Below, piece after piece: positions 26,893 to 43,536 of a DNA stretch of 64,000 nucleotides. Below the pieces are notes generated by a model. That model did no database searches, was not told where the DNA came from, and saw only the letters and a program-made list of their open reading frames with translations. Origin of the DNA: a virus (taxonomy: Duplodnaviria; Heunggongvirae; Uroviricota; Caudoviricetes); the IMG/VR virus record IMGVR_UViG_3300032167_000028; one strand, 5' to 3'. The first letter of the stretch is position 1, and each line of letters begins with the position of its first letter. A program made the translations under genes and the position numbers.

Positions 26893-26911
26893 TTAGATGT
26901 TGAACATCTAA
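26893..26911. repeat. 19-bp palindrome TTAGATGTTGAACATCTAA (copy 1)
   Basis: exact match; 9 bp upstream of TTGACT -35. Confidence 0.95.
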
Positions 26912-26920
26912 AAACGTGAC

Positions 26921-26949
26921 TTGACTTTTTAGTGGGTATCCTGTATAAT
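26921..26949 (+). promoter_or_regulatory. sigma70-type promoter TTGACT-17-TATAAT
   Basis: hexamers at 26921-26926 and 26944-26949; AGGAGG RBS and ATG at 26992. Confidence 0.7.
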
Positions 26950-26991
26950 AATACTTGCAAGGAGTCCTATAAACAAGAAGGAGGAAAACTT

Positions 26992-27219
26992 ATGAAGATT
27001 TGGATTGTAATGGTATGGGATTGCGATGACTGGGAGATTCTGGACGTTCTGTTCGATAGTGATGCGATTGCACCGCGTGTCACCGAACTGTTCAAAGAGG
27101 AAGAAGGCCGCACTGAAATCAAAGTAGAATGCTGGTATAAGGATCCCACTAATGAAGTCAATGGGTATTTTCTTGATGTTGATGCATATTGGCGGGATGA
27201 TTGGCTGGAGGGTGAGTAA
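26992..27219 (+). CDS. hypothetical small protein (75 aa)
   Basis: MKIWIVMVWDCDDWEILDV...; strong RBS. Confidence 0.6.
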   Translation: MKIWIVMVWDCDDWEILDVLFDSDAIAPRVTELFKEEEGRTEIKVECWYKDPTNEVNGYFLDVDAYWRDDWLEGE

Positions 27220-27233
27220 TCACCCTAATATAA

Positions 27234-27252
27234 TTAGATGTTCAACATCTAA
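27234..27252. repeat. 19-bp palindrome TTAGATGTTCAACATCTAA (copy 2)
   Basis: exact; followed by TTGACA(27262)-17-TGgTATACT(27285). Confidence 0.95.
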
Positions 27253-27320
27253 AAATTAAAATTGACATATGGTCATATTTGTGGTATACTATCCATAGAA
27301 ATAGAAAAGGAGTTGTCTGC

Positions 27321-27488
27321 ATGAAAGTTCTTCTTACTTGGATGTATACGCATCCGCATGAGTTTATTCGTATTGTGTTTTTAATCATCATTGCGGCAAT
27401 CTTTTCTCCTTGGCGTGTAGAGATTCTTTCTGTGTTGTTGTGCTTTGACTTGGTGTTGTTGTATCTGGTTAGAAATTGGAAGGAGTAA
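27321..27488 (+). CDS. small hydrophobic membrane peptide (55 aa)
   Basis: AGGAG RBS; MKVLLTWMYTHPHEFIRIVFLIIIAAIF... Confidence 0.55.
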   Translation: MKVLLTWMYTHPHEFIRIVFLIIIAAIFSPWRVEILSVLLCFDLVLLYLVRNWKE

Positions 27489-27492
27489 AATT

Positions 27493-27771
27493 ATGACCAT
27501 TACTGTTGTTATCGAAGAAAATCATGGCCCTATCATTTATGCTAAGAATGATGACGCGGCAAAGCGTGCCCTGTTGGAAACGAATTGGGTAGACCAGTTC
27601 TCTGATGTATGGTGTCCTGATATGAGTGAAGATGCTCTCATGGATGCCGGAGACTTCCGTGCATTGAAGGATGTCTATGGTGATAATTGGGAAGAGCAGT
27701 ATCTTTCCTTTGATCATACTAAGCTGGAATTGATGGGTTATCATTTTTATACCGTAGAGTTGTACGAATAA
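27493..27771 (+). CDS. hypothetical protein (92 aa)
   Basis: GGAAGGAG RBS; MTITVVIEENHGPIIYAKNDD... Confidence 0.6.
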   Translation: MTITVVIEENHGPIIYAKNDDAAKRALLETNWVDQFSDVWCPDMSEDALMDAGDFRALKDVYGDNWEEQYLSFDHTKLELMGYHFYTVELYE

Positions 27772-27789
27772 TCGTACACTCCTTTTTTA

Positions 27790-27808
27790 TTAGATGTTGA
27801 ACATCTAA
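27790..27808. repeat. 19-bp palindrome (copy 3, G centre)
   Basis: exact; this copy has no adjacent promoter. Confidence 0.95.
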
Positions 27809-27827
27809 AAATCGCCTACAAAAAAAT

Positions 27828-27858
27828 AACAGGGGATTTGCATCCCCTGTTATTTCCA
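27828..27858. terminator. bidirectional intrinsic terminator
   Basis: AACAGGGGA-TTTGC-ATCCCCTGTT with T-tracts on both strands, between convergent genes. Confidence 0.7.
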
Positions 27859-28383
27859 TCAGGCACGGCTGTAATACGGCTTGCCCTTCACGACTTCACG
27901 CTTGACCGTCTCGGCGTTGTCCGCGGCGATGTTCTTGAGGTAAGTACCCACCTGCATGACACTGACTTCGGCAAGCTCCGGAATCGCCGCCTTGATGTCG
28001 GTGGTGGTCATCGGCTCGTCAGTCAGATTGACCATGCACCAGTCCTTGACAAGCTCCTGCTCCGCGTTACGCTTCGCACGCTTCGCTTCGGCTTCGGGAT
28101 CGACTTCCTTCGCCTTCTTCTCGGTCTTGGGTTTCGCGTCATTCTCCGCACGGGCGGTGATGGCGGCATCCAGATCGAAAGCCGGAGAAGTCTTGGTGGC
28201 TTCAGTGTTCTTCACGGTGATTTCCACGGTGGCGAACACGGTGTTGCCGTTCTCGTCCTTCACGCCGGTGTCAATGGCGTAGCAGTCCTTCTTGGCAACG
28301 CGAACCGGAATCAGACCAGCAACGGAAGCGGCGATCAGGTTCTCAACAGCGGCATTGGCGGCAACACGAATCTCGTTCTTCAT
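27859..28383 (-). CDS. paralog-family protein A2
   Basis: 174 aa; ITVKNTEATKTSPAFDLDAAI ... KA-rich ... SVMQVGTYLKNI; ~58% GC; two tandem consensus promoters upstream (28455-28484 and 28553-28581). Confidence 0.75.
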   Translation of the reverse strand: MKNEIRVAANAAVENLIAASVAGLIPVRVAKKDCYAIDTGVKDENGNTVFATVEITVKNTEATKTSPAFDLDAAITARAENDAKPKTEKKAKEVDPEAEAKRAKRNAEQELVKDWCMVNLTDEPMTTTDIKAAIPELAEVSVMQVGTYLKNIAADNAETVKREVVKGKPYYSRA

Positions 28384-28590
28384 AGGGTATCCCTTTCTGC
28401 TTTTTAGGTGGTCGCATCACCTGTCGTTTTGTTTTCCTCTCTTGAGGATGTATTCATTATACCAGAAGATTTGGAATCTGTCAAGAGTTTTTTGAAACTT
28501 TTTTCAATTTCTTTTTTCTCTTGTTCTGTTCCTCTCTCTCAGGTACGAATATAGTATACATCAAATTTTAGAAAAAGTCAATGCTTAATA

Positions 28591-28609
28591 TTAGATGTTC
28601 AACATCTAA
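28591..28609. repeat. 19-bp palindrome (copy 4) centred between divergent promoters
   Basis: minus -35 at 28576-28581 and plus -35 at 28619-28624, each about 10 bp from the palindrome. Confidence 0.95.
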
Positions 28610-28618
28610 AAATGGTTA

Positions 28619-28647
28619 TTGACTTTTTGTTTTAGGTGTGCTATACT
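28619..28647 (+). promoter_or_regulatory. sigma70-type promoter TTGACT-17-TATACT
   Basis: drives exonuclease gene. Confidence 0.7.
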
Positions 28648-28677
28648 ATCAGTACCAACTGAAAGGAAGTGCATAAA

Positions 28678-29436
28678 ATGAATGTCGTTGTATTCGACAC
28701 CGAAACCGCAAACATGCAGAAACGTTTCTGCTATAATGTCGGGTATGTTATCCTTGACATTTCTACTGGTGAAAAGCTGGTGGAGCGTGACTTTGTAGTG
28801 GAGCAGATTTGGCATAATGTTGAACTGTTTGCAACTGCCTATTATGCGGACAAGCGTGAACTGTATGTCAAGAAAATGCGTTCGCGTAAAGCGGTCATGG
28901 ATAAATGGGGTTATATCATGCAAACTATGATGCGTGATTTCAAGCGGCATGAAGTGGTTTGTGCGTATGCGTATAACTCTCCATTCGATGACAAAGTGTT
29001 TACCTTTAACTGTGATTGGTTCAAAACTCAGAATCCTTTTGACACGATTCCCATTTACGATCTTATGGGACTTGCCTGCGACTGTATCACGCAGTATGAT
29101 ACCTATCATAGTTACTGCGAAGAACACGAGTTTTTCACCGAATCCGAAACCGAGTATTCCATCACCGCAGAAACAGTCTATAGGTTCATCACCGATGACC
29201 CGACTTTTGTAGAAGAACACACCGCCCTTGCGGATGCACGAATTGAAGCAACCATTTTGATGCATTGTCTGAATATGGGGGCATATCCTGACCGAGAATA
29301 TCCGGTTGTGCATCAGAAACGAGTGATTGAACGTCCGTTCAAAGTGACCGTTGATGGACAAGTTGTCGCAGAAGGAAAGTACATCAAGAAGTGGCGGCGA
29401 GGGGACATTGTTAAATATACGACAAAGAACGGATAA
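28678..29436 (+). CDS. DnaQ-like (DEDD) 3'-5' exonuclease
   Basis: MNVVVFDTETANMQ (Exo I motif), 252 aa. Confidence 0.7.
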   Translation: MNVVVFDTETANMQKRFCYNVGYVILDISTGEKLVERDFVVEQIWHNVELFATAYYADKRELYVKKMRSRKAVMDKWGYIMQTMMRDFKRHEVVCAYAYNSPFDDKVFTFNCDWFKTQNPFDTIPIYDLMGLACDCITQYDTYHSYCEEHEFFTESETEYSITAETVYRFITDDPTFVEEHTALADARIEATILMHCLNMGAYPDREYPVVHQKRVIERPFKVTVDGQVVAEGKYIKKWRRGDIVKYTTKNG

Positions 29437-29453
29437 CATCCGTTCTTTCTTTA
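29426..29453 (+). terminator. intrinsic terminator
   Basis: AGAACGGAT-AAC-ATCCGTTCT + TTCTTTAT. Confidence 0.6.
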
Positions 29454-29462
29454 TGCGTGATT

Positions 29463-29481
29463 TTAGATGTTCAACATCTAA
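29463..29481. repeat. 19-bp palindrome (copy 5)
   Basis: exact; lies between two convergent terminators, no promoter. Confidence 0.95.
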
Positions 29482-29501
29482 TATATAAAAAATAAGGATG
29501 A

Positions 29502-29897
29502 TTATTCATCATCCTTGAACATGTTTCGCATGGTTTCGTAAGTGTGCTCAAACTCCTTGAAGTCCTTCCACTCCGAATCATCGCAGTCGTAATAGTAACA
29601 ACCTGCACCGTATTCAAAGGCATCCTGCCAACCATGTTTGTCCCACGGAGAGCCATAACCAACGGTACGCAGAATTTCGTGCAAGGTCGCCGCCTCTTCT
29701 GCACTGTGCGTCTTGATGTAATAGAAGTCCTCATAAACGAGATTGTCCTCGTTCAGAAGTGGCATCGGTTCGCCGTAGCGGTCGAACAACTTGAATCCAA
29801 GATGTTCTTTGGGAATGGTGGAAACGGTTTCATACAGTTCGCAATCTTCCTCAGAATCGAACTCTTTGCCGTCATAAGCACGATAAACGATATCCAT
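29502..29897 (-). CDS. hypothetical protein (131 aa)
   Basis: AAAGGAG RBS; terminator hairpin AAGGATGAT-TATTC-ATCATCCTT at its 3' end. Confidence 0.6.
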   Translation of the reverse strand: MDIVYRAYDGKEFDSEEDCELYETVSTIPKEHLGFKLFDRYGEPMPLLNEDNLVYEDFYYIKTHSAEEAATLHEILRTVGYGSPWDKHGWQDAFEYGAGCYYYDCDDSEWKDFKEFEHTYETMRNMFKDDE

Positions 29898-29925
29898 ATT
29901 TTTCTCCTTTCATTTGTGGAAGGTT

Positions 29926-30087
29926 TTACCCTTCCACAATCTTCCATCCATCTTTGTCAAGGTTTTCCATTAGATTGGCGGCGAAGGTTACACATTCTTC
30001 ATCCGACCATCCAAGGTTGTTGCGAAGGTTGTCGCACGCCGCTTCAATCGCCGCGTTGAGTACGGTTGTCGTGATAGTCTTTTCCAT
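29926..30087 (-). CDS. hypothetical small protein (53 aa)
   Basis: AGGAG RBS; MEKTITTTVLNAAIEAACDNLRNNLGWSDEE... Confidence 0.5.
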   Translation of the reverse strand: MEKTITTTVLNAAIEAACDNLRNNLGWSDEECVTFAANLMENLDKDGWKIVEG

Positions 30088-30155
30088 GTTGTTCGCTCCT
30101 TTTCTTTTTGTGATTATATTCTATCATAAAAAAGAGAATTTGTCAACAAATACTA

Positions 30156-30174
30156 TTAGATGTTCAACATCTAA
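30156..30174. repeat. 19-bp palindrome (copy 6)
   Basis: exact; minus -35 TGTCAA 30141-30146. Confidence 0.95.
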
Positions 30175-30214
30175 AAATCTTTGAAAATAAAATAAAATAA
30201 TTTCAAAAAACCTA

Positions 30215-30243
30215 TTGACAAAAGTGGCAACATAGTATATACT
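30215..30243 (+). promoter_or_regulatory. sigma70-type promoter TTGACA-17-TATACT
   Basis: upstream of CDS 30292. Confidence 0.65.
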
Positions 30244-30291
30244 ATAATTGTTCCAAGGAACAAAACAAATAAAAGAAAAGAGGAAACAAAC

Positions 30292-30879
30292 ATGACTAAC
30301 AAGAACTTCATCAACCTGCGTTCCCACTATGTACCGGATGAAATCCGCGTCAATCCGTTGTTCAACAATGCTCAGGAGTGCTTTGATGCTATGATGCTGA
30401 GCATGGTTCAGAGATGGTATGACCGTTTGACTGACGATGCCCACAAGGCAATCAGGATTCTGAAGTTTAATCCTACTGTGGTGACTGGTATGATGTTCTT
30501 CACCGACGGTTCTATGGATGAAAAGCCGCAGTACTTCGGTAGCGACTATGAGGACATCGGCACCGAAATGAAGAACTTCGCCCTGTCTCTTGCCCAGAAT
30601 GATGAAGAATACGAGAAGTGTCAGACCCGTGGTTATGTCCGCTGGTATAGCCGCATGGCTCAGTCGATCCGCTGGTATCAGAAGGGTATCGAAGATATCG
30701 AAAAGACGCACGAACTGACGCTTTCCATTCTGCCGCACGAACTGAAAGAAAAGGTTATCGAACAGATTGTGTCTACCGATCCTGTCTGTCAGATGGCGGC
30801 ACGCAACTACTATGAAGCACTGGAAGATGGACGCAAGGACATGCTTCGCAATGCTTTGCAGAAGATGAGGGGTGTATAA
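30292..30879 (+). CDS. hypothetical protein (195 aa)
   Basis: ORF track; own promoter; terminator hairpin 30863-30885. Confidence 0.65.
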   Translation: MTNKNFINLRSHYVPDEIRVNPLFNNAQECFDAMMLSMVQRWYDRLTDDAHKAIRILKFNPTVVTGMMFFTDGSMDEKPQYFGSDYEDIGTEMKNFALSLAQNDEEYEKCQTRGYVRWYSRMAQSIRWYQKGIEDIEKTHELTLSILPHELKEKVIEQIVSTDPVCQMAARNYYEALEDGRKDMLRNALQKMRGV

Positions 30880-30901
30880 CCCCTCTTTCTTTTGCTGGAG
30901 G

Positions 30902-30920
30902 TTAGATGTTGAACATCTAA
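30902..30920. repeat. 19-bp palindrome (copy 7, G centre)
   Basis: exact; GCTGGAGG at 30893-30900 abuts it. Confidence 0.95.
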
Positions 30921-30943
30921 TAATTAGAAATGAAAAAGAGGTC

Positions 30944-31354
30944 TTAATAGACCTCAATGGAGTAGATATACTGTTCTTCTTCCTTGACGAAGGTGTTAAG
31001 CACCATGCCGGTGTCATCAACTTCAAGGAAACGACGAGTGACCCTCTTAGAATCACGACGCATTTCAGGCATGGTCGGCTTCTTCACGGTCGGATACTTG
31101 CGGCGGCTATCATGGGAAGCATAACCAAGTCCGGCGACGCTTGCCTTGATGCTGGTGCGTTCGGTTTCATCGTCAGTCATGAGAGCGGCAATCTGAGCGG
31201 CGGTTTTGTTGGGATGATTCACCATTACGCCGCGAAGCTGTTGCAGATATTCACGATGCTCGATTTCATCTCGGACGCGGAGATCATGCAACTGCATACG
31301 AAGAATGTCCATCTCGTGGTTAGCCTTCTTGCGATTCTGGAAGTGATTTGCCAT
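30944..31354 (-). CDS. hypothetical protein (136 aa)
   Basis: ORF track; promoter TTGACT-17-TATACT at 31399-31427 on minus. Confidence 0.6.
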   Translation of the reverse strand: MANHFQNRKKANHEMDILRMQLHDLRVRDEIEHREYLQQLRGVMVNHPNKTAAQIAALMTDDETERTSIKASVAGLGYASHDSRRKYPTVKKPTMPEMRRDSKRVTRRFLEVDDTGMVLNTFVKEEEQYIYSIEVY

Positions 31355-31436
31355 GTTTATTTACCTTCTTTCTTTTATTATCCCCTTGGGATGATTAGAG
31401 TATATCATAGTATAGAAAGAAAGTCAATACCTTTTA

Positions 31437-31455
31437 TTAGATGTTCAACATCTAA
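31437..31455. repeat. 19-bp palindrome (copy 8)
   Basis: exact. Confidence 0.95.
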
Positions 31456-31480
31456 AAGTTTCCAATAAAAAAGGGGAGGA

Positions 31481-32473
31481 TTACTCCTCACCCATAGGAA
31501 TGTCGATAATCGGAAGAGCACCAGAACCACCCATCATATAAGTCGGGAGAGTACCTTCCCAACGCTGGGCATATTCATAAGCGACGATTTCATCAGTAAT
31601 TGCGGCGGCCTGTGCGGCAATGGCTTCGGCTTCCTTCTGACCCTTATATGCGATTGCATCGGCCTCAAGCTGGGCGACTTCATAATCTGCCTGTGCCTTT
31701 ACCTTTGCGGCTTCGGCATCTGCGTCGGCGTTAATCTTACGAATAGCCGCGTCATTTTCTGCCTGAATCTTGGTACGCTCGGCAAGCTGACGGGAACGCT
31801 CGGTTTCCATTGCCTGCTGGGTCTTATCGCGAAGGGCTTCCTGCTCTGCAACCTGCTTGGCTTCGATGGCATTGGTGTATGCATCGGTGAAGTCAAAGTC
31901 ATCAAGGAACACCATTGCTTCAATGCCATAGTTCTGGGCATACGCAGAAACATGCTCATTGATTTCAGACTGAATCAGAGTACGAGTTTCGGTCATGTCT
32001 TCGGCTTCACGCAGACCAAACGCGGCCTTAACAGAGTTATTTACCTGCGGCTTGATAAGGATATTAAAGTAATCTACGCCGACAGTCTTGTAAATATTCG
32101 GTGCGGCAGAGGGAAGCAGATTATACTTTACAGTATAAGTATAAGTCACTTCCTGAAGATCCTTACTGAAAGAGACATTAGATTCAGTAAAGGTCTGTTC
32201 CTTATTGGTCATGGTAACAATCGTCTGCCACGGCTTGTGGAAATTCAGACCATTACCAAGTGAAACATCTTCGACCCTACCGAACGTAGAAAGGATGCCC
32301 GTATGGCCGGTTGGAACGGTAGAAGTGCAAGCAAGGAACATGGTAATGCCTGCAACAACGAGACATGCAACCATTACGATAGTACCAAGACCCTTGGCCT
32401 TCATCTTACGCAGAATCATCATGGCACACAGACCGCCGACAAGAAGGATAACGGAAAAGATAATTGCGAACAT
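31481..32473 (-). CDS. SPFH / band-7 (prohibitin-like) domain membrane protein
   Basis: N-terminal TM helices, TGHTGILSTFGRVEDVSLGNGLNFHKPW SPFH core, Ala/Glu/Gln-rich coiled-coil tail. Confidence 0.7.
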   Translation of the reverse strand: MFAIIFSVILLVGGLCAMMILRKMKAKGLGTIVMVACLVVAGITMFLACTSTVPTGHTGILSTFGRVEDVSLGNGLNFHKPWQTIVTMTNKEQTFTESNVSFSKDLQEVTYTYTVKYNLLPSAAPNIYKTVGVDYFNILIKPQVNNSVKAAFGLREAEDMTETRTLIQSEINEHVSAYAQNYGIEAMVFLDDFDFTDAYTNAIEAKQVAEQEALRDKTQQAMETERSRQLAERTKIQAENDAAIRKINADADAEAAKVKAQADYEVAQLEADAIAYKGQKEAEAIAAQAAAITDEIVAYEYAQRWEGTLPTYMMGGSGALPIIDIPMGEE

Positions 32474-32520
32474 TGGGATATTCTCCTTTTCTTTTTGTTC
32501 TGTTCTCTTGGAACGATATT

Positions 32521-32549
32521 AGTATAGCATAGGAATATGAAATTGTCAA
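32521..32549 (-). promoter_or_regulatory. sigma70-type promoter TTGACA-17-TATACT (minus strand)
   Basis: plus-strand AGTATA 32521-32526 and TGTCAA 32544-32549; AAGGAG RBS before SPFH gene. Confidence 0.7.
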
Positions 32550-32558
32550 TAATAATTA

Positions 32559-32577
32559 TTAGATGTTAAACATCTAA
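32559..32577. repeat. 19-bp palindrome variant TTAGATGTTAAACATCTAA (copy 9, A centre)
   Basis: one-base variant. Confidence 0.9.
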
Positions 32578-32598
32578 TATTTCAAAGGAAAGGAAGAT

Positions 32599-33030
32599 TT
32601 AATCTTCCAGTCCGATGATGCTCATATAGTCGCAGTCCTGACCATGAACCGCACGACAGTGAGCGATGGCCTGACCGATGATAGGATCATAACGATCTTC
32701 ATCCACGTTCAGACGGGCAGTGCCCACATGCTTCTTAAGCTTGCCCCAAGTGTTAGGGATATAACCCACACAAGTGGTAATGTAGTTGGAGTGCATGTAG
32801 CGGATGTCCTGCATATGCGGACGCTCATGAATCTTCTCAACATACTTAGCACAAGCGTCGTGCCAAGCGTCGGCAACATCCTGACGATACTTCTTAAGGA
32901 CAACGCTTCCATTGTCAAGGAAGATTTCAAGCGGCTCGCCTTCCTTGATCTTCATAACCTTGCGGATTTCCTTCGGAATAACCACACGACCGAGTTCATC
33001 AATGCGACGCACGATACCAGTACACTTCAT
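32599..33030 (-). CDS. AbrB/SpoVT-family DNA-binding regulator (N-terminal swapped-hairpin domain) with C-terminal extension
   Basis: MKCTGIVRRIDELGRVVIPKEIRKVMKIKEGEPLEIFLDNGSVVLKK. Confidence 0.7.
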   Translation of the reverse strand: MKCTGIVRRIDELGRVVIPKEIRKVMKIKEGEPLEIFLDNGSVVLKKYRQDVADAWHDACAKYVEKIHERPHMQDIRYMHSNYITTCVGYIPNTWGKLKKHVGTARLNVDEDRYDPIIGQAIAHCRAVHGQDCDYMSIIGLED

Positions 33031-33046
33031 AATTCATTTTCCTTTC

Positions 33047-33205
33047 TTACTTCTTCTTATAGGCAGTATAGGGACAGGTAGGACAGGAACAGGAATAGCC
33101 CTTCTTGGTGTTACTCCAACTCGGATAACTTGCAAGGAAGGTTGTGCCGCACTTGTAGCACTTAAATTCGATTACCTTAGGTGCGCCCGTAACTACGATA
33201 GACAT
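33047..33205 (-). CDS. small zinc-ribbon protein (52 aa)
   Basis: MSIVVTGAPKVIEFKCYKCGTTF...CSCPTCPY; 2x CxxC; AAGGAAAA RBS. Confidence 0.5.
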   Translation of the reverse strand: MSIVVTGAPKVIEFKCYKCGTTFLASYPSWSNTKKGYSCSCPTCPYTAYKKK

Positions 33206-33253
33206 GATACATTTTCCTTTCTGTTAGTTGTTGTGTTCCTTACTGACAAACAT

Positions 33254-36898: not shown

Positions 36899-37300
36899 TT
36901 ATTCACCCTTGTTTTCCTCTGCCTTGCGTGCGGCTCGGGCGGCTTCTTCGGCTTCCTTCTTTGCCTTTGCCGCGGCGGCCTTCTCTGCACGCTTCTTGGC
37001 GGCTTCCTGCTTTTCCTTTTCCTTGCGTGCCTTGTTCGCGGCTACATCTTCGAGATGTTCCTGATACTGCTGGGCTTCACCATAAGCATCATAGGCTTCG
37101 CCGGAACGATCACCACGCGGAATGGAGAGCGTGAGCTTTGCAAAGATTTCGTTACCCTCTGCATCAACAGTCGGGAAAGCAATCGCGTTACCGCTGACGC
37201 GGAGAACTTCTTCTCCTTCATCAGTAAGGAACTGTGCAAGCTGAGCAAGGATTTCGTCGCGTCGCATGTTGGTGAGCTGGGTCTTGGTGAGCTTTGCCAT
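36899..37300 (-). CDS. Lys/Ala/Glu-rich small protein (133 aa), possible distant member of family A
   Basis: ATG at 37298-37300 with GGAAGGAG RBS; C-terminus ARKEKEKQEAAKKRAEKAAAAKAKKEAEEAARAARKAEE. Confidence 0.6.
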   Translation of the reverse strand: MAKLTKTQLTNMRRDEILAQLAQFLTDEGEEVLRVSGNAIAFPTVDAEGNEIFAKLTLSIPRGDRSGEAYDAYGEAQQYQEHLEDVAANKARKEKEKQEAAKKRAEKAAAAKAKKEAEEAARAARKAEENKGE

Positions 37301-37407
37301 GTTGGTTGTCTCCTTCCTTGTTCCTTTGGAACAATAACAGTATAGCATAGTTACAGAAGTTTGTCAATAGAAAAATGAAAAAAGTTTTTAAGAAAGTCAA
37401 TTCTTTA

Positions 37408-37426
37408 TTAGATGTTCAACATCTAA
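37408..37426. repeat. 19-bp palindrome (copy 16)
   Basis: exact. Confidence 0.95.
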
Positions 37427-37547
37427 TTTTCTCAATTTTCATTTTCTATATATATTATACCACACTTGGAAACATTTTTCAATTCGCCATTTAGACAAAT
37501 ATTCAAATCTGTTTTTGTAAAAAATATACAAAAGGGTGTTGCCGCCC

Positions 37548-37931
37548 TTATGTTACATAATAGTCATAAAGTGCCGGAATATGTTCGGACATGAGACGTT
37601 CTTTCGTTTCCCATCTTGGGAAGTCAAACACGCGGAAGGATGACCCATACCATTGAATACGGATATGTTCCCAATCTTTTGTTTCGATCATTCGCATAGA
37701 AGAAACAGGGAACTTTCCACAAATAATTCCTTTTTCTTCAAAGAAACGCCAATTTTCACGCGGTTCCTTGCTTCCATAAATGGTAAACAGATTTGGAGTA
37801 TATTCTTCTACGTCTCCATTAAGGAAGGTAAACACAAAGGTCGGACGAGAATAGTACGCAGTATTCAGAGGCAAGAAGATTTTTTTAATTTTTTCCCACA
37901 TATTCAACGCTCCTTTCAGGGATTGCGGCAA
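37548..37931 (-). CDS. hypothetical protein (127 aa)
   Basis: ORF track. Confidence 0.55.
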   Translation of the reverse strand: MPQSLKGALNMWEKIKKIFLPLNTAYYSRPTFVFTFLNGDVEEYTPNLFTIYGSKEPRENWRFFEEKGIICGKFPVSSMRMIETKDWEHIRIQWYGSSFRVFDFPRWETKERLMSEHIPALYDYYVT

Positions 37932-38110
37932 ACTGTCGCAGTTTCATGTGTCCAATAGAATGTAGCCATCAGATCATTATTGGGGCTTACCCAGTGTTCC
38001 CACCAAAAACGCGGAGAGCCGCCAATATTGCCAGATTCTTCCAGATGCCAATTATTAGCAATCAATTCGTCGCGGCTTGCCTGATAGCCGTCAAAAGGTA
38101 CGATACTCAT
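37916..38110 (-). CDS. hypothetical small protein (64 aa)
   Basis: ATG 38108-38110, AAGGAG RBS. Confidence 0.5.
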   Translation of the reverse strand: MSIVPFDGYQASRDELIANNWHLEESGNIGGSPRFWWEHWVSPNNDLMATFYWTHETATVCRNP

Positions 38111-38178
38111 GTTGTGCAACTCCTTTGCTTTGTTTTCTATATTGTATCATATATGCTTTAATTTGTCAACAAGATTTA

Positions 38179-38197
38179 TTAGATGTTCAACATCTAA
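38179..38197. repeat. 19-bp palindrome (copy 17)
   Basis: exact; GCTGGAGG at 38201-38208. Confidence 0.95.
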
Positions 38198-38219
38198 AAC
38201 GCTGGAGGAGAAGAGGGGA

Positions 38220-38810
38220 TTATTCAATCCCCTCAATTGCTTCCATGATTGCTTGATGAATCTTGTGTACATTGGCGGTGATGAACTTCTGTGCCTGTTC
38301 TTCATCGCACTCATAGTAGTCCTTCTTATTCTGACAACGGTTCATGCAACGTGCGTGGTCAAAGATATTGTGCAGTGCATGTTCTGCCGCCTGTGCCTGT
38401 GCCTTGTTGGCAACTTCCATATACCACATCTTCTGAACAGGAGTAGCACGGTTGATGGTGTTATAACGCTGAATGATATCCTTGGTTTCACCCGGCTTCA
38501 CGCCGCCGGAGATGATGGAGAAGTATACCACATGCTGACCACGAAGCGGCTGACCCTGACTGCGAACCAGCTCCACGATCTCAGCCCATTCAGAGCGACA
38601 AGCCAGCTCCCACAGACGAGCTTCTTCCGGTTCCAGCATCATGGAACAGATGTCATAGGTACTCAGCTTTTCGCGGCTGTACTCGATATAGTCCTTAGTA
38701 CGCGGCTCAGCTTTACCAGAGAAACGAGACACAGCGTTATAGACCAGCTGAGCACGGGCGGTTTCAAGGTTCTGGGACTTGGTGGCAGGAGTGTAACGGT
38801 TGAAATACAT
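38220..38810 (-). CDS. T5orf172 (GIY-YIG-like) domain protein
   Basis: ATG 38808-38810 with AAGAGGT RBS; VVYFSIISGGVKPGETKDIIQRY...AEHALHNIFDHARCM...EDYYE pattern. Confidence 0.6.
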   Translation of the reverse strand: MYFNRYTPATKSQNLETARAQLVYNAVSRFSGKAEPRTKDYIEYSREKLSTYDICSMMLEPEEARLWELACRSEWAEIVELVRSQGQPLRGQHVVYFSIISGGVKPGETKDIIQRYNTINRATPVQKMWYMEVANKAQAQAAEHALHNIFDHARCMNRCQNKKDYYECDEEQAQKFITANVHKIHQAIMEAIEGIE

Positions 38811-38898
38811 AGCATTTACCTCTTTCTTTCTGGGGTGCTTCCCCTTAATTCGTATGACTAATTCTACCACAGAAACAGATAATTGTCAATAAGGTTTT

Positions 38899-38917
38899 TT
38901 AGATGTTCAACATCTAA
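38899..38917. repeat. 19-bp palindrome (copy 18)
   Basis: exact; minus promoter ATTCTA 38861-38866 / TGTCAA 38884-38889. Confidence 0.95.
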
Positions 38918-38943
38918 AAACTATAAAAGAGGAATAACTCTCG

Positions 38944-39090
38944 TTATTCCTCCATGGGTGTGACTGTGACAACCGGATCACGCATTGCCCAAAATTCGAG
39001 GGCGGTTTCGATTGCCATTTCTTCATCTTCTGCAACGCCATCCGGCAATTCGTAGTCAACACAATCTTCGATTCTGATATTAAATCTCAT
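38944..39090 (-). CDS. hypothetical small acidic protein (48 aa)
   Basis: GGGGAGG RBS; MRFNIRIEDCVDYELPDGVAEDEE... Confidence 0.45.
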   Translation of the reverse strand: MRFNIRIEDCVDYELPDGVAEDEEMAIETALEFWAMRDPVVTVTPMEE

Positions 39091-39323
39091 CTGATATATC
39101 CTCCCCTGTAAATGTTACGGTTCTTTTTTCTCTGCTCACGCTTCCACTCACGCCATGCAAGCCACGCATAATAGATGACCAGAAGCACAGTACCGATGGA
39201 CATAGACCACATGATGATGGTTAGAATCATTTCACGCGGTTCTACGAACTGACCAACCACAAGGCCGCAGAAAGCGGAAATAAGCCAAGTAAGAATGATG
39301 TCCCAAATAGTGTCATTAAGCAT
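39087..39323 (-). CDS. small membrane protein (78 aa)
   Basis: ATG 39321-39323 with AAGGGAG RBS; two predicted TM helices. Confidence 0.55.
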   Translation of the reverse strand: MLNDTIWDIILTWLISAFCGLVVGQFVEPREMILTIIMWSMSIGTVLLVIYYAWLAWREWKREQRKKNRNIYRGGYIR

Positions 39324-39390
39324 GTTTGTCAACTCCCTTTAAGTTATGATTTATTATAGCATCTATTTTTGTTTTTGTCAAGAATTAAAA

Positions 39391-39409
39391 TTAGATGTTG
39401 AACATCTAA
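39391..39409. repeat. 19-bp palindrome (copy 19, G centre)
   Basis: exact. Confidence 0.95.
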
Positions 39410-39429
39410 AAAAAGAAAGAAGTTTCTTT

Positions 39430-39696
39430 TCAGAAACTTCTACCCGCTCCACCACCGCGAGAACTGCCGCCCTTAAAACCGCTGGAGGAAGAACGATGAC
39501 GATGAGAACGATGGGAAGAATGACTGATAACATCAGACCAGAACTCAAGCATGACAATAAACTTATCAGTCCAATCCCATTCACGATTGAAAAGCCAATC
39601 GAAGATTGCCCAAATGGTTGCACATGCAACACTAAGACCAAGCAATAGACCAAAAAGAATTGCAAATGCTTTGATGAGTCCGATGAACGTTTCCAT
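39430..39696 (-). CDS. small membrane protein with Ser/Gly/Arg-rich tail (88 aa)
   Basis: AAGGGAG RBS. Confidence 0.55.
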   Translation of the reverse strand: METFIGLIKAFAILFGLLLGLSVACATIWAIFDWLFNREWDWTDKFIVMLEFWSDVISHSSHRSHRHRSSSSGFKGGSSRGGGAGRSF

Positions 39697-39763
39697 TTTA
39701 ATTGCTCCCTTCTTTTATTGATTATAGTGTAACATAATTTTTTCTTTTTGTCAATAATAAAAA

Positions 39764-39782
39764 TTAGATGTTCAACATCTAA
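39764..39782. repeat. 19-bp palindrome (copy 20)
   Basis: exact. Confidence 0.95.
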
Positions 39783-39807
39783 TAATAAAAAGAAGGTTGA
39801 CATTATG

Positions 39808-40224
39808 TCAACCCCTGTGCTTGCGAAGGAACGGATGTGCATTTACAATTGCATTAACTCTCTCCCACTTTTCCGCGGCGTCATCACGCATAGACTGATA
39901 ATTGGTATAGTATACCAAGCGTTGTTTCTTGAGAGTTTCGATTTCCTCAACAATTTCATCGCGTTCTGCTTTGGGCAACCATCGCAGTTCACTTTCTTTC
40001 TTCTCAATTTCCTTCTCATACTTGCGAACGTGCTTCATAAAATATGCACCTGCTTCCTTGTCACAAGTAGAAGCAACATGACAAGCACGAAGATATTCCG
40101 GATATTCCTTTTCAATTTTCTTGTCGATATGCTTGTAATACAAGACCATACCTACACCGCTAAGAATACCACAAAGAACAATGCCGCCAAGGATAACGAG
40201 GAAGATTACATTTTCGTAACTCAT
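39808..40224 (-). CDS. membrane-anchored protein (138 aa)
   Basis: ATG 40222-40224; N-terminal TM helix. Confidence 0.5.
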   Translation of the reverse strand: MSYENVIFLVILGGIVLCGILSGVGMVLYYKHIDKKIEKEYPEYLRACHVASTCDKEAGAYFMKHVRKYEKEIEKKESELRWLPKAERDEIVEEIETLKKQRLVYYTNYQSMRDDAAEKWERVNAIVNAHPFLRKHRG

Positions 40225-40225
40225 A

Positions 40226-40600
40226 TTATTTATCCGTCCTTTCATAATTGTAATGTTCATGAAGTTTGAAGTTGTAACCGCTGGTGGACCGAGAATCAAG
40301 CACTTTAATTTCAAGCGGCATTGTTTCTGCATCTCTATATTTTGCATAGCACGCAGAACAGACTTTCATAATGTCGGTGGCGTGGTCATTCTCCCACATA
40401 AGATAGTAAGAGTTATAACCATCGTCATCGGTAGTATAGAAGGTTTCTACAATGGTGACGTTCTCAGTATAACTTTCAACTTCTTTCATACTGTAATCAA
40501 CCACGAAGTCAAACGCGGCCTTGCCCATACAAAAGACACAAAGAAGAATACCAAGAGTACAAAGAATACTAATAAGTGTTGGGCGGTTGGTTGTTCTCAT
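40226..40600 (-). CDS. membrane-anchored protein (124 aa)
   Basis: ATG 40598-40600 with AAAGGAG RBS. Confidence 0.55.
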   Translation of the reverse strand: MRTTNRPTLISILCTLGILLCVFCMGKAAFDFVVDYSMKEVESYTENVTIVETFYTTDDDGYNSYYLMWENDHATDIMKVCSACYAKYRDAETMPLEIKVLDSRSTSGYNFKLHEHYNYERTDK

Positions 40601-40666
40601 GTTTTCAATCTCCTTTCTTGATGATAATAGTATACAATAAAATTTCAAATTTGTCAATAAATAATT

Positions 40667-40685
40667 TTAGATGTTGAACATCTAA
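40667..40685. repeat. 19-bp palindrome (copy 21, G centre)
   Basis: exact. Confidence 0.95.
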
Positions 40686-40706
40686 TTATAAAAAAGATAA
40701 GAGAGT

Positions 40707-40973
40707 TTAATCTCTCTTATCCCAACCAGTGTACATCCATGCCAACAGGATAGGCCGCACAAGGTCATCACCCGTTTCAACATCTTCAAAGGTCATGATT
40801 TCCTGTGTGTCGATGTTGCGTACAACCAACTGACAATTACTGCGATTCCACCAGAAAGACAGGTGAGCATCAGAGCACTTGAAATCCATGATGTTATTCT
40901 TGATAAGAACATCAGTAAACAGATGAGCATCGTTGATAGTGAGGAAGTTAATACGAGAATAGCTGGTGACCAT
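40707..40973 (-). CDS. hypothetical protein (88 aa)
   Basis: ORF track. Confidence 0.5.
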   Translation of the reverse strand: MVTSYSRINFLTINDAHLFTDVLIKNNIMDFKCSDAHLSFWWNRSNCQLVVRNIDTQEIMTFEDVETGDDLVRPILLAWMYTGWDKRD

Positions 40974-41039
40974 GTTTTACAACTCCTTTGTTCTTTTGAT
41001 GGTTTTATTATACCATGAGATTAGGGATTTGTCAACCCC

Positions 41040-41285
41040 TTATCTCAAAAAATATACATTTAATATTATCAGAGCGATTTGAATAATGTACAGATTCAAA
41101 TGGGTTTTGTGCCGCGTGTTTAATGCAATGCTGAGAATAGAATTTATCAAGCCCAGTATAGGTGCCCACCAATAACCCAGTACGACGAATATTACATTCA
41201 ACACGGTGAACAGGGCAGAAACGTCGCCCCATTCAAATACATACTTTTTCTTTTCAATTCCAAAGAACTCTTTTATGCTTCCCAT
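41040..41285 (-). CDS. small membrane protein (81 aa)
   Basis: hydrophobic; ORF track. Confidence 0.45.
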   Translation of the reverse strand: MGSIKEFFGIEKKKYVFEWGDVSALFTVLNVIFVVLGYWWAPILGLINSILSIALNTRHKTHLNLYIIQIALIILNVYFLR

Positions 41286-41413
41286 TCTTCTTCACATCCA
41301 TCATACCATACACGTTTAATAGTCTTGCCATCTGCGGAAATGAAATCTTCATATCCCATCCAAGAAGATTCTGCTTGCTGTTCGTCAATTTTGATCCAGT
41401 TATCAGAAGTCAT
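41273..41413 (-). CDS. hypothetical small protein (46 aa)
   Basis: ATG 41411-41413 with GAAAGGAAGG RBS. Confidence 0.4.
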   Translation of the reverse strand: MTSDNWIKIDEQQAESSWMGYEDFISADGKTIKRVWYDGCEEEWEA

Positions 41414-41564
41414 ACACAGTACCTTCCTTTCCATCCTCAAAGCCCACGCCATAGCAACCGCAAGGACTTTCATACTCTGTCCAGTTCTTGCCTGCCGCGG
41501 TCAGTTCCCATCCATCCGCGAGCATCTGAGATTCGGTGACCTTCATGCCTTTTTCATATTTCAT
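41403..41564 (-). CDS. hypothetical small protein (53 aa)
   Basis: MKYEKGMKVTESQMLADGWELTAAGKNW... Confidence 0.4.
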   Translation of the reverse strand: MKYEKGMKVTESQMLADGWELTAAGKNWTEYESPCGCYGVGFEDGKEGTVYDF

Positions 41565-41655
41565 TTATTCATCCCCTTTTTTCTTTATTCTATCATATGC
41601 TGGAGGAAATGTCAAGGGGTTATTGAAAAATATTTTTACTTCTTCTAAAAGTATA

Positions 41656-41674
41656 TTAGATGTTCAACATCTAA
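41656..41674. repeat. 19-bp palindrome (copy 22)
   Basis: exact; GCTGGAGG 41599-41606 and TGTCAA 41610-41615 about 40 bp away. Confidence 0.95.
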
Positions 41675-41694
41675 AGATGAAATTGTGGGACTGA

Positions 41695-41937
41695 TTAACA
41701 GTCCCATGTATAGCCGCCAACATAGGGGTCGAATCCTAACTCCAAATCATCCGCGGATTCAGAGCATCCATACTCTTCTTCCACATCGAAATCATCATCC
41801 CAATCCTCATAGGGATCATCGTCATCCTGATCGCACGGAGCCGGGAACATCGGGTCATCGTAGTGGCAACGCGGATAGGCTTCGTTCTCGTCCTTCCAGA
41901 AGTAGCCGCAGTTGCGGCGTTCGCATTCACTCATCAT
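41695..41937 (-). CDS. Cys-rich, highly acidic small protein (80 aa)
   Basis: ATG 41935-41937 with GGAGG RBS; MMSECERRNCGYFWKDENEAYPRCHYDDPMFPAPCDQDDDDPYEDWDDDFD. Confidence 0.55.
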   Translation of the reverse strand: MMSECERRNCGYFWKDENEAYPRCHYDDPMFPAPCDQDDDDPYEDWDDDFDVEEEYGCSESADDLELGFDPYVGGYTWDC

Positions 41938-42092
41938 GGTTTTCGTCCTCCTCTTCGTTCGTCGGGTACATCTCGTCAACCCATTCAAAACCAAATTCTT
42001 CGTATTCGGGGTGCTTCATGTTTATCGCTCCTTGCTTTCTTTTGATGGTTATATTGTACCACAGAAAAATGAAATTGTCAACACTTTTTTAT

Positions 42093-42111
42093 TAGATGTT
42101 CAACATCTAAT
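42093..42111. repeat. 19-bp palindrome (copy 23)
   Basis: exact. Confidence 0.95.
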
Positions 42112-42134
42112 TATGTCGGGGTGGTTAACCCCTG

Positions 42135-42359
42135 TTAGAAATCGTTTGTTTCATAATGTCTGAATGTACCATCGAATCTGTAATACATCACCACGAAACA
42201 ACCATTATCAAACCAAATATCAATTTCAAAGAAATCATCCTCATTACCGGTAGTATATACATCAACAACGTCCGTCATGTATTCGTAACCGTTAGCATGA
42301 AGTCGATCTGAAAGTTCCTTGAAACTGTATTGCGTAAGTTGTTCAACGAACTCTTTCAT
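42135..42359 (-). CDS. hypothetical small protein (74 aa)
   Basis: ATG 42357-42359 with AAGGAG RBS. Confidence 0.5.
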   Translation of the reverse strand: MKEFVEQLTQYSFKELSDRLHANGYEYMTDVVDVYTTGNEDDFFEIDIWFDNGCFVVMYYRFDGTFRHYETNDF

Positions 42360-42587
42360 TTTGATAACTCCTTCTAAAAGCATATTCTTCCGGCGTAAGG
42401 TTGCGAACCTTAACCACTCGGCCGCACAATCCCCGTGATACTTTAACCGCATTCAAAATGCAATCACTCTTAATATAGTACGTCAAACCATTTTGAAATG
42501 TAAGGGCGTAGTACTTCATGGAATCATCTTCTTTCCTTTTGTTGTTTATAGTCTAACATAAAAAATGAAATTTGTCAATACTTGAAA

Positions 42588-42606
42588 TTAGATGTTCAAC
42601 ATCTAA
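42588..42606. repeat. 19-bp palindrome (copy 24)
   Basis: exact. Confidence 0.95.
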
Positions 42607-42624
42607 TTATAAAAGGATTTGGTA

Positions 42625-42804
42625 TTAAACCAAATCCGCGAGTTTATTTTCTACAAAGGCGGCATCTTCAACACGGCAAGTCACCGTGATTTCACCATTG
42701 CGGAAATAAGCAAAGCAAGGAATGCGTTCTGCGATTTCATCAAGGCGTTCGTGAATCAGAGAGGAAAGGATGGTGGGATCGGCGTAAACAGAGATGGTCT
42801 TCAT
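42625..42804 (-). CDS. hypothetical small protein (59 aa)
   Basis: AAGGAGG RBS; MKTISVYADPTILSSLIHERLDEIAE... Confidence 0.5.
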   Translation of the reverse strand: MKTISVYADPTILSSLIHERLDEIAERIPCFAYFRNGEITVTCRVEDAAFVENKLADLV

Positions 42805-43132
42805 GGGGTTGCCTCCTTTAGTTTGTTTTCTTTTCTTTTTGTAATTATATTATAGCACACAAAAATGAAATTGTCAACCCCTAAAATAAAAAATTTCCCG
42901 ATGGAGTTAGCTACTCTCCATCGGGTCGCACCTCAATATATTTATCGCCCGAATCACCGCGAGGCCGTGCAGTGACCGTTTGGAACAGTTATCAAATTAT
43001 AAGGTGGGTTCGTGCGTTGGCTGTTCCCCTTCGCAAGTTGCCCTTACACTAAATCAAGTTTCATCAACTACCTTTCTTTCCTTTCGACATGTATATAATA
43101 ACACAAAATGCTGGAGGTGTCAATAGTCTTTT

Positions 43133-43151
43133 TTAGATGTTGAACATCTAA
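43133..43151. repeat. 19-bp palindrome (copy 25, G centre)
   Basis: exact; promoter spacer contains GCTGGAGG (43110-43117). Confidence 0.95.
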
Positions 43152-43172
43152 AAATAAAAAGGAAAGATGACG

Positions 43173-43445
43173 TTAGTCATCTTCCGCATTCCAACCAACA
43201 TTCACTGCAGAAACATTGGAGCAATCAATGAAGATTTCTCCTGCTTCATTGCGAATGCTCATCAGGCCATAATCAGCAACAAACTGGTCAATCAGAGTGA
43301 TGATTTCAGCTGCCGCACGACTACGCTCATTCTTCTGCTTTTCACGTTCATCCTTGAGCCTTTCAGCCGCTTCAATGAATGCGGCCAATTCATCATCAGA
43401 GCCAACAGAGAAGATGTATTCACCAATACGAACAGAGCTTTCCAT
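43173..43445 (-). CDS. hypothetical protein (90 aa)
   Basis: ATG 43443-43445 with GAGGT RBS. Confidence 0.5.
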   Translation of the reverse strand: MESSVRIGEYIFSVGSDDELAAFIEAAERLKDEREKQKNERSRAAAEIITLIDQFVADYGLMSIRNEAGEIFIDCSNVSAVNVGWNAEDD

Positions 43446-43517
43446 AGAGACTACCTCATTTCTTTCTTTTGATAGCATTATTGTAGCATATTGCAGGCTG
43501 TTTGTCAATGCAGGTTC

Positions 43518-43536
43518 TTAGACGTTCTACATCTAA
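43518..43536. repeat. degenerate palindrome TTAGACGTTCTACATCTAA (copy 26)
   Basis: 2 mismatches. Confidence 0.8.

Follow-up and report, generated by a model that had tools for sequence, protein, structure and literature searches.

A 19-bp palindrome at the transcription-unit junctions of an uncultured phage's early module: a putative operator array

What does a phage gain from a single palindrome repeated, almost letter for letter, between the small genes of one region? The question is raised by a 64,000-nt stretch of IMG/VR record IMGVR_UViG_3300032167_000028, the part of that viral genome covered here and called the window below. The palindrome is 19 bp long, TTAGATGTT-S-AACATCTAA, and a search of the window with the pattern TTAGATGTTSAACATCTAA gives 22 exact matches, or 26 when up to three mismatches are allowed. 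All 26 copies are intergenic and all lie within positions 26893-43536, while dinucleotide shuffles of the window give 0.00 exact matches and 0.03 at up to three mismatches. An earlier examination of the letters without database searches (the sequence-only reading) had reported 22 exact and four near copies confined to the intergenic spaces of this interval, and the recount agrees with it. We lean, with modest confidence, towards the view that the palindromes form an operator array acting at the DNA level, through which a dimeric, probably phage-encoded protein would jointly control the early promoters, in a cassette layout like that of the promoter early stem-loops (PeSLs) of T4-type phages. 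Three points extend the earlier reading: the palindromes mark the junctions of transcription units, they are joints of cassette gain, loss, and inversion, and they belong to a superfamily of lineage-specific palindromes.

Each transcription unit of the module begins with a near-consensus -35 element, a 17-bp spacer carrying an extended -10 motif (TGn), a TATAAT-like -10 element, and a GGAGG ribosome-binding site, and it ends in a GC-rich hairpin followed by a T-run. The order at a junction is terminator hairpin, palindrome, TTGACA-17-TATAAT, GGAGG, and ATG. Most copies had been placed just upstream of the -35 element of a consensus promoter by the sequence-only reading, and the measured distances bear this out: 17 sites have a gap of 9 bp between the edge of the palindrome and the -35 element, and the site at 42092 has one of 10 bp, which puts the centre near -54 at 18 of the 26 copies. 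In five others the gap is longer (30 bp at 36178; 40-41 bp at 34692, 36858, 37408, and 41656). The copy at 28591 is, as described earlier, centred between two divergent promoters and lies 9 bp from both; that at 30156 also separates divergent promoters, with gaps of 9 and 40 bp. The three copies that had been called promoterless (27790, 29463, and 30902) are indeed flanked by convergent GC-rich hairpin terminators. The proposal that the central base, C or G, records orientation did not survive: among the minus-strand promoters, eight sites have C and four have G, plus-strand promoters have both bases, and in related phages the centre is mostly A or T, with positions 9 and 11 varying too.

A search for the motif in related phages, as the earlier reading had advised, showed that the palindrome recurs in diverged genomes. 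The 114 IMG/VR stretches with its core, TTAGATGT-N3-ACATCTAA, belong to about 30 contigs of 120-190 kb (the largest 189 kb), each with 10-40 copies confined to one region of 15-35 kb, and the coding DNA of these contigs matches the window in patches only, at 65-80% identity. The window and the approximately 30 related contigs were pooled into one set of 863 sites and 659 strict promoters, in which the 9-bp gap to the -35 element is dominant (466 promoters), followed by 8 bp (56) and 10 bp (35). The remaining gaps form clusters, spaced by whole helical turns, at 17-21 bp (26 promoters), 28-31 bp (26), and 39-41 bp (9), and intermediate gaps are almost absent. The nominal Rayleigh p is about 3e-11 at a 10-bp period, a value that overstates independence because the sites are phylogenetically related. 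The sequence of the 9-bp spacer between palindrome and -35 element is unconserved. Within the palindrome, positions 1-8 and 12-19 are invariant across the approximately 30 phages, and positions 9-11 drift without compensation. The half-sites TTAGATGT and ACATCTAA are 8 bp each, and their centres are 11 bp apart, which is one helical turn.

The pooled set also shows what the palindrome accompanies. At 472 of 526 one-sided sites the GC hairpin of the upstream gene ends 3-19 nt before the palindrome, which is present at 327 of 333 promoters (98%) preceded by a strict terminator; among the 156 promoters that lack it, a terminator lies upstream at just 6. On these counts, the palindrome marks the junctions of transcription units rather than promoters as such. 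Since it follows the upstream terminator and precedes the next promoter, it lies outside both transcripts. The packing of genes and terminators is extremely compact: of 472 scored sites, 324 have the stop codon in or beside the loop of the hairpin that terminates the same gene (examples in the window are 34082-34097, 38213-38234, and 36212-36231; others occur in the relatives L001-L114).

A wider search was anchored on homologues of the universal exonuclease-like early gene and yielded 79 further loci. Most of them carry a palindrome of the same design in the same place, with other half-sites, namely TTGGATGT, TTAGGTGT, TTAGGTGG, TTAGACGT/A/G, TTATCTGT, CTATATGT, TCGTACGT, TTACTGTA, and TTATTTGT. 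Palindromes are uniform within a genome, and their types mostly follow lineage in the tree of the anchor protein, the TTAGATGT type being scattered over the deepest branches of one half of that tree. The types are connected by single-base steps, the changes among lineages keep the symmetry, and genomes with two types exist. Locus L302 has 8 GGT/GGT, 5 GAT/GAT, and 3 hybrid sites, and locus L253 has 10 TTA/TTA, 5 TTG/TTG, and 5 hybrid sites; in both, calculation from the site counts shows hybrids to be rarer than under independent assortment. The gap to the -35 element is constant within a type and is 7, 8-10, 12, or 13 bp in different types. The length of the central spacer can change as well, because locus L313 (7700-14100) has a 20-bp, even-length version, TTAGACGTAATTACGTCTAA (8-N4-8), about 20-25 bp from the -35 element.

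One clade is without these palindromes and has other upstream motifs, which suggests that its members use different regulators in the same promoter-upstream slot. Among these palindrome-less relatives (L256, L255, L268, and L254), L256 has paired TTGTRCAA motifs about 20 bp apart upstream of early promoters, and L254 has GTTCACA/GTTTACA repeats. The distant cultured relative Enterococcus phage VRE9_4 (L239, PP680570) has no 19-bp palindrome and keeps per-gene promoters and terminators. In its region 7400-14600 the loop of the terminator hairpin doubles as the -35 TTGAC, e.g., TAGGGGTTGACAAACCCCTATTTTTTTGTTATACT, and it has in common with the window a sigma-like gene and two exonuclease-like paralogues.

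Comparison of related contigs shows that the palindromes are also places where genomes differ. In two contig pairs of 95-97% identity, three whole-cassette insertions or deletions of 331-363 bp were found, the flanking alignments overlapping exactly on one palindrome. Among 275 homology breakpoints between contigs of at least 88% identity, 47% fall no more than 30 bp from a palindrome centre, compared with 12.6% of random positions, a 3.7-fold enrichment. The window itself provides examples when compared with the close relative L236 (92-95% identical): L236 lacks the cassette 26912-27233, which two palindromes flank, its homology stops 9 bp past 43133, and it has an insertion abutting 39391. 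The conserved early genes are co-oriented in all of the approximately 30 relatives, pointing away from the sigma/terminase block, and their order is permuted among phages. The exo252 cassette is the exception in orientation, being inverted in the window and in L236 only, while about 30 relatives have the orthologue in module direction; its inversion between 28591 and 29463 is the pattern that would be expected from exchange between self-complementary copies. No inversions were seen among contig pairs of at least 80% identity. The comparisons show recombination at the repeats as a pattern of evolution, and since identical self-complementary copies flank every cassette, the palindromes would act as crossover points for the loss, gain, reordering, and inversion of cassettes.

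Which phages carry this array, and in which hosts, can be outlined from database comparisons. The closest large terminase subunits (TerL) among cultured phages belong to Geobacillus virus E3 and Alicyclobacillus phage KKP_3916, at about 40% identity, and those of Enterococcus phages of about 140 kb are 35% identical. A megablast search of the module against GenBank phages gave no nucleotide match, and a literature search for the motif gave chance matches to primers only. In 185,579 species genomes, the motif is present in multiple copies on just four contigs of metagenome-assembled genomes, all shorter than 5 kb and resembling phage fragments, and otherwise occurs at chance level, which argues against a host regulon and against prophages. 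These four contigs were binned as Acutalibacteraceae, Oscillospiraceae, and Bacillota, and there are hints of an Oscillospirales-type host; no long bacterial contig in the same genomes has the motif in multiple copies, and the host may be under-sampled there. The source phage is a large uncultured gut or rumen phage, and its lifestyle is apparently virulent. One bacterial site, TTAGATGTATGACATCTAA of Neobacillus and Bacillus, is a single conserved copy at one orthologous locus and was judged unrelated to the phage element. It has the half-sites of the phage palindrome (TTAGATGT-ATG-ACATCTAA), directly follows a -10 element, and adjoins a CodY-box-like AATTTTCAGAAATT upstream of a short leader peptide, MSAEKKLHILEE (loci L132, L136, L144, L146, L147, L151, L152, L161, L173, L177, L180, L186, L189, and others). 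Known host operators, namely the Gram-positive LexA box, the CIRCE element, the Fur/PerR, CodY, and Rex sites, and cre, were compared by eye and rejected; the Fur box resembles the palindrome in its 9-1-9 layout only.

In the operator reading, a two-fold symmetric, sequence-specific protein would bind the palindrome at about -54, presumably as a dimer. From there it would occupy a fixed helical face beside the docking region of the RNA polymerase alpha C-terminal domain, and one protein could act simultaneously on some 25 near-consensus host-sigma-A promoters. Class I upstream regulator sites, which involve contact with that domain, function from several positions on one face of the helix; here the preferred gaps are 9, ~19, ~29, and ~40 bp, with almost none between, in sites that are related by descent and with a gap that depends on half-site type. 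The likeliest action would be a coordinated shut-off or damping of early transcription: core promoters with a near-consensus -35 and an extended -10 element should need no activator, which makes repression likelier than activation. Protein p4 of phage phi29 offers a precedent, as its dimer, bound upstream of the -35 element, contacts the alpha C-terminal domain, activating a weak promoter and repressing strong consensus promoters by holding the polymerase. The bound protein might also insulate neighbouring units. It would probably be encoded by the phage and co-evolve with its sites, as suggested by the lineage-specific diversification of the palindromes and by the winged-helix proteins encoded inside the module.

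A structural model and gene distribution make the winged-helix/N-domain family, which includes three products of the module (Table 1), the best candidate binders. The model of the 165-residue product of 36220-36717, made with AlphaFold2, has a predicted local distance difference test score of 90, and its C-terminal 64-70 residues superpose on the winged helices of Fur, PerR, Zur, and ArsR at 1.6-2.3 A, with Foldseek E-values of just 0.008-0.08. Members of this winged-helix family occur in 30 of 33 palindrome modules, and a profile search of the family against PDB sequences gave nothing significant. The N-domain is present in 70 of 73 palindrome-bearing loci and in 1 of 9 palindrome-less loci, an association that amounts to few independent events because the palindrome-less loci are essentially one clade. 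The two binders proposed by the sequence-only reading fared less well. The AbrB-like protein (32599-33030) is a poor candidate, with homologues in just 9 of the 33 modules that have palindromes and in 15 of the 82 loci of the wider set, and the loci L233-L235 contain such homologues and no palindromes. The other, a helix-turn-helix protein of sigma-r4 type (23993-24379; given as 23993-24397 in the earlier reading), has no homologue in the palindrome regions of relatives, which are the only stretches of those genomes covered, and one could lie elsewhere in them.

Several observations weigh against the operator reading. With its centre at -54, the palindrome stays clear of the core promoter, an unusual place for a repressor to bind. 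Some consensus promoters are without a palindrome, including the outermost early promoter, a perfect-consensus one at 45177, and conversely three copies in the window and about 14% of those in relatives have no promoter. The gap varies among half-site types, so there is no single universal geometry, and the helical-phase statistics rest on related, non-independent sites. No candidate binder has a sequence that covaries with half-site type: the window and L250 have different sites although they encode N-domain proteins that are about 65% identical, and homologues of the 165-residue winged-helix protein (41-51% identity) are found in phages with other palindromes.

The same observations have to be set against other explanations. 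One holds that the palindromes are primarily crossover sites for cassette shuffling, driven by homology, as proposed for the PeSLs, or by a dedicated site-specific enzyme, as in integrons, with any effect on transcription being secondary. Whole-cassette junctions falling on the palindrome, the concentration of breakpoints around it, the permuted order of cassettes with orientation kept, the one cassette inverted between two copies, and the copies at promoterless junctions are all in line with this, and any two copies are at once direct and inverted repeats of each other. We nevertheless find it unlikely, as it leaves unexplained the rigid 9-bp spacing to the -35 element, which persists despite divergence of the spacer, and likewise the 10-, 20-, and 31-bp alternatives; moreover, 19 bp is short for homologous exchange, Pfam and PHROGs revealed no recombinase among the module proteins scanned, no inversion appears among pairs of at least 80% identity, and any repeated conserved element would gather breakpoints as a side effect. 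A stronger form of the idea, to which we give little credence, is that these apparently virulent phages carry an integron-like exchange platform, with promoter-gene-terminator cassettes cut out, inserted, reordered, or inverted at the palindromes by a dedicated phage-encoded protein. Such a protein could belong to the N-domain/winged-helix family or be one of the exonuclease-like paralogues, and the half-site types could be separate exchange groups. That a protein of the host, a transcription factor or nucleoid protein of an Oscillospirales-type bacterium, binds the site and boosts or times the early promoters, the types reflecting different hosts, is in our view unlikely. Early promoters must fire before any phage protein exists, phages whose proteins share just 35-50% identity retain one and the same half-site, and no phage protein covaries with half-site type, all of which would suit a host binder; on the other side stand the lack of a host regulon in the 185,579 species genomes, where multiple copies occur only on the four phage-like contigs, and the rapid stepwise change of specificity with genomes of mixed type. 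Such diversification is typical of factors encoded by mobile elements, not of host regulators.

Two further explanations start from the position of the palindrome at unit boundaries. A protein bound there could be a roadblock that stops read-through of terminators and prevents interference between convergent or tandem units, much like the stoperators of mycobacteriophages except that its site is outside the units. The palindrome does directly follow 98% of strict terminators, lies between convergent terminators, and is absent where a promoter has no preceding terminator; however, neither the copy at exactly 9 bp from both divergent promoters (28591) nor the fixed spacing to the -35 element is accounted for, and we consider this improbable as the main function. 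Roadblock or insulator action is compatible with the operator reading rather than exclusive of it. A role in RNA, as a processing site, stabiliser, or auxiliary terminator, is very improbable. As RNA, the palindrome can form a 7-bp stem with a 5-nt apical loop, and symmetric half-site changes among lineages would preserve that stem too. The stem is, however, AT-rich and weak (-5.8 kcal/mol) and has no U-run after it, unlike an intrinsic terminator with its GC-rich stem and U-run, and a separate genuine terminator lies upstream. The palindrome is located beyond that terminator's U-run and some 45 bp short of the next transcription start, in neither transcript, its copies within a genome share one sequence with no compensatory variation between them, and an Rfam scan of the region gave two transfer RNAs (tRNAs) only and no match to the palindrome. 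The untranscribed position, the invariant half-sites, and the weak stem fit a protein-binding site much better than a generic RNA hairpin, and here the sequence-only reading is upheld.

The feature coordinates are collected in Table 1. The module is flanked by structural genes on the left and by a sigma-factor-like gene, the large terminase gene, and the portal gene on the right. Pfam and PHROGs searches with about 45 module proteins and conserved proteins of relatives gave almost no matches beyond AbrB/MazE, SPFH, T5orf172, and a weak HAD match. Module proteins are accordingly mostly without known function, the recognisable ones being an SPFH protein, the AbrB/MazE-domain protein, a T5orf172-domain protein, and two DTET exonuclease-like paralogues. 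The T5orf172-domain protein (216 residues; 38220-38870, minus strand) has its T5orf172/MUG113 domain at the C-terminus and is present in L236, with no homologue in wider relatives. The DTET paralogues (28678-29436, plus strand; 35082-36086, minus strand; phrog_20187) have an N-terminal D-T-E-T motif and resemble DEDD exonucleases. Their genes are the most universal of the early module (32 of 33 contigs) and are also found in cultured Enterococcus phages and phage Phass-1. Genes for tRNA-Lys(UUU) and tRNA-Leu(CAA) (33392-33467 and 33660-33742, minus strand) form their own palindrome-flanked unit inside the module. Just downstream of them lies a T-arm-like hairpin (33324-33344, minus strand; GGAAGGTTCAAATCCTTCC), which neither ARAGORN nor Rfam calls a tRNA and which may be a degenerate third one.

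Two gene-poor regions, 45026-45898 and 24400-26890, flank the early module. The former contains the perfect consensus promoter at 45177 (minus strand), which has no palindrome and drives the first early operon; the latter contains several promoters and inverted pairs of the octamer GCTGGAGG. This octamer occurs 23 times in the window between 22312 and 48241, against 1.1 copies expected, and is also found in the relative L006. Its copies are mostly intergenic and adjoin palindromes or promoters (e.g., 27204, 30894, 33267, 34680, 36166, 38201, and 43110). All 12 copies within 27204-43117 are on the plus strand, and inverted pairs lie at 25115/25133 and 26667/26677. The octamer is the Escherichia coli Chi site but for one base.

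Table 1. Palindrome copies and associated features of the window, with positions counted from its first letter; gaps are distances in bp to the -35 element.
Feature	Position	Strand	Context
Early-gene module	26893-43536		some 35 small genes forming about 25 transcription units of one or a few genes; every unit has a sigma-A-type promoter and an intrinsic terminator of its own
Palindrome, exact (G)	26893-26911		promoter on right, gap 9 (TTGACT-17-TATAAT); left end of array; one end of cassette 26912-27233, missing in close relative L236
Palindrome, exact (C)	27234-27252		terminator on left; promoter on right, gap 9
Palindrome, exact (G)	27790-27808		convergent terminators, promoterless
Paralogue of candidate binder, 174 residues	27859-28383	-	same layout of N-domain, linker, and winged helix, judged from sequence and alignment; weak match to winged-helix profile
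Palindrome, exact (C)	28591-28609		divergent promoters, gap 9 on both sides
Inverted exo252 cassette	28610-29462	+	DTET exonuclease-like gene (28678-29436) with its promoter and terminator, between palindromes 28591 and 29463
Palindrome, exact (C)	29463-29481		convergent terminators, promoterless
Palindrome, exact (C)	30156-30174		divergent promoters, left gap 9, right gap 40
Palindrome, exact (G)	30902-30920		convergent terminators, promoterless
Palindrome, exact (C)	31437-31455		minus-strand promoter, gap 9; upstream terminator at right
Palindrome, near copy (centre A)	32559-32577		minus-strand promoter, gap 9; terminator at right
AbrB/MazE-type protein	32599-33030	-	PF04014 at residues 7-50
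Palindrome, near copy TTAGATGTATTACATCTAA	33292-33310		core half-sites intact; minus-strand promoter, gap 9
Palindrome, exact (C)	34051-34069		minus-strand promoter, gap 9; terminator at right
Palindrome, near copy (CTAG...)	34692-34710		minus-strand promoter, gap 41
Palindrome, exact (G)	35039-35057		minus-strand promoter, gap 9
Palindrome, exact (G)	36178-36196		minus-strand promoter, gap 30
Candidate binder, 165 residues	36220-36717	-	N-terminal alpha/beta domain, two long K/A/E-rich helices, C-terminal winged helix
Palindrome, exact (C)	36858-36876		minus-strand promoter, gap 41
N-domain protein, 133-149 residues	36899-37348	-	small alpha/beta domain and 60-residue helix; family tracking palindrome presence best
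Palindrome, exact (C)	37408-37426		minus-strand promoter, gap 40; also lone -35-like TTGACT at gap 9
Palindrome, exact (C)	38179-38197		minus-strand promoter, gap 9
Palindrome, exact (C)	38899-38917		minus-strand promoter, gap 9
Palindrome, exact (G)	39391-39409		minus-strand promoter, gap 9; L236 insertion adjoins
Palindrome, exact (C)	39764-39782		minus-strand promoter, gap 9
Palindrome, exact (G)	40667-40685		minus-strand promoter, gap 9
Palindrome, exact (C)	41656-41674		minus-strand promoter, gap 40
Palindrome, exact (C)	42092-42110		minus-strand promoter, gap 10
Palindrome, exact (C)	42588-42606		minus-strand promoter, gap 9
Palindrome, exact (G)	43133-43151		minus-strand promoter, gap 9; L236 homology ends 9 bp beyond
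Palindrome, near copy TTAGACGTTCTACATCTAA	43518-43536		minus-strand promoter, gap 9; right end of array
Sigma-factor-like gene (phrog_5767)	45899-46798	+	divergent from early module; conserved in relatives and cultured Enterococcus phages

If the operator reading is true, one small protein-DNA interaction would switch an early programme of 25-40 promoters in widespread uncultured phages of 120-190 kb that infect gut and rumen Firmicutes. The superfamily would then be a natural series of operator variants separated by single-base steps, two-type genomes included, in which the co-evolution of regulator and site is directly testable. The idea of regulatory cassettes as joints of mosaicism is extended from T4-like phages of Gram-negative bacteria to an unrelated lineage, in which the joint is sharply defined. 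The types of 19-mer may be used as markers for locating early regions and classifying these phages, and units of palindrome, promoter, and terminator may be used as compact, insulated expression parts.

Among known systems, the array resembles the conserved inverted repeats of phage phiC31, a temperate phage in which highly conserved repeats at many intergenic sites of the early region, near early promoters, are operators of the repressor. Those sites overlap or adjoin promoters rather than taking a fixed position upstream of the -35 element. The phi29 p4 system has few sites, of different sequence and at about -82/-71, and is a precedent of mechanism only; no homology to p4 was detected here. 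The attC sites of integrons are imperfect palindromes with extrahelical bases, belong to promoterless cassettes, and are accompanied by an adjacent tyrosine recombinase, whereas the cassettes described here have their own promoters and a perfect palindrome, and the scanned module proteins show no recombinase domain.

The PeSLs of T4-type phages combine a terminator stem-loop with a sigma-70-type early promoter in front of small genes of a plastic genome region, and they adjoin insertions, deletions, and replacements between close relatives (PMC2839356, PMC4122927). The likeness extends to the composite of terminator and early promoter, the clustering of small genes of unknown function, and the loss of cassettes between tandem elements. 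In PeSLs, however, the stem-loops are the terminators themselves and are loosely conserved (e.g., G-rich stem, loop, and C-rich stem), while here a separate, invariant, AT-rich palindrome of 19 bp separates a variable terminator from the promoter and keeps a fixed distance of 9 bp to the latter. It is moreover uniform within each genome and lineage-specific across the superfamily, and by TerL the phages are not T4-like.

The SPbeta repeated element (SPBRE) is a short motif repeated in the intergenic early-promoter regions of phage SPbeta and bound by the master repressor MrpR, a single phage protein that governs many promoters in this way, and it was predicted in silico decades before this binder was found (PMC10516654). 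Both cases involve a large Firmicute phage with one conserved intergenic motif repeated beside early promoters. SPBRE has about 10 copies, belongs to a temperate phage, and maintains lysogeny through a binder with a recombinase fold, in contrast to the 26-40 copies found here, one per cassette junction including promoterless ones, with no prophage copies in the 185,579 genomes. In mycobacteriophage L5 and cluster A, more than 20 copies of the repressor site lie in short intergenic spaces and act on initiation and read-through (PMC9283540). The array shares with them the many copies of one site throughout short intergenic spaces, but the L5 stoperators are asymmetric, 13 bp long, occupied by a monomer, dependent on orientation, and located inside transcription units, whereas the sites described here are palindromic, have no consistent orientation, and lie outside the units. 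The array differs from SPBRE/MrpR and L5 in the symmetry of its sites, their placement with respect to the promoter, their number, and the apparently virulent lifestyle of the phage, and the value of the finding lies in the superfamily of co-evolving site types together with the sharply defined joints between cassettes.

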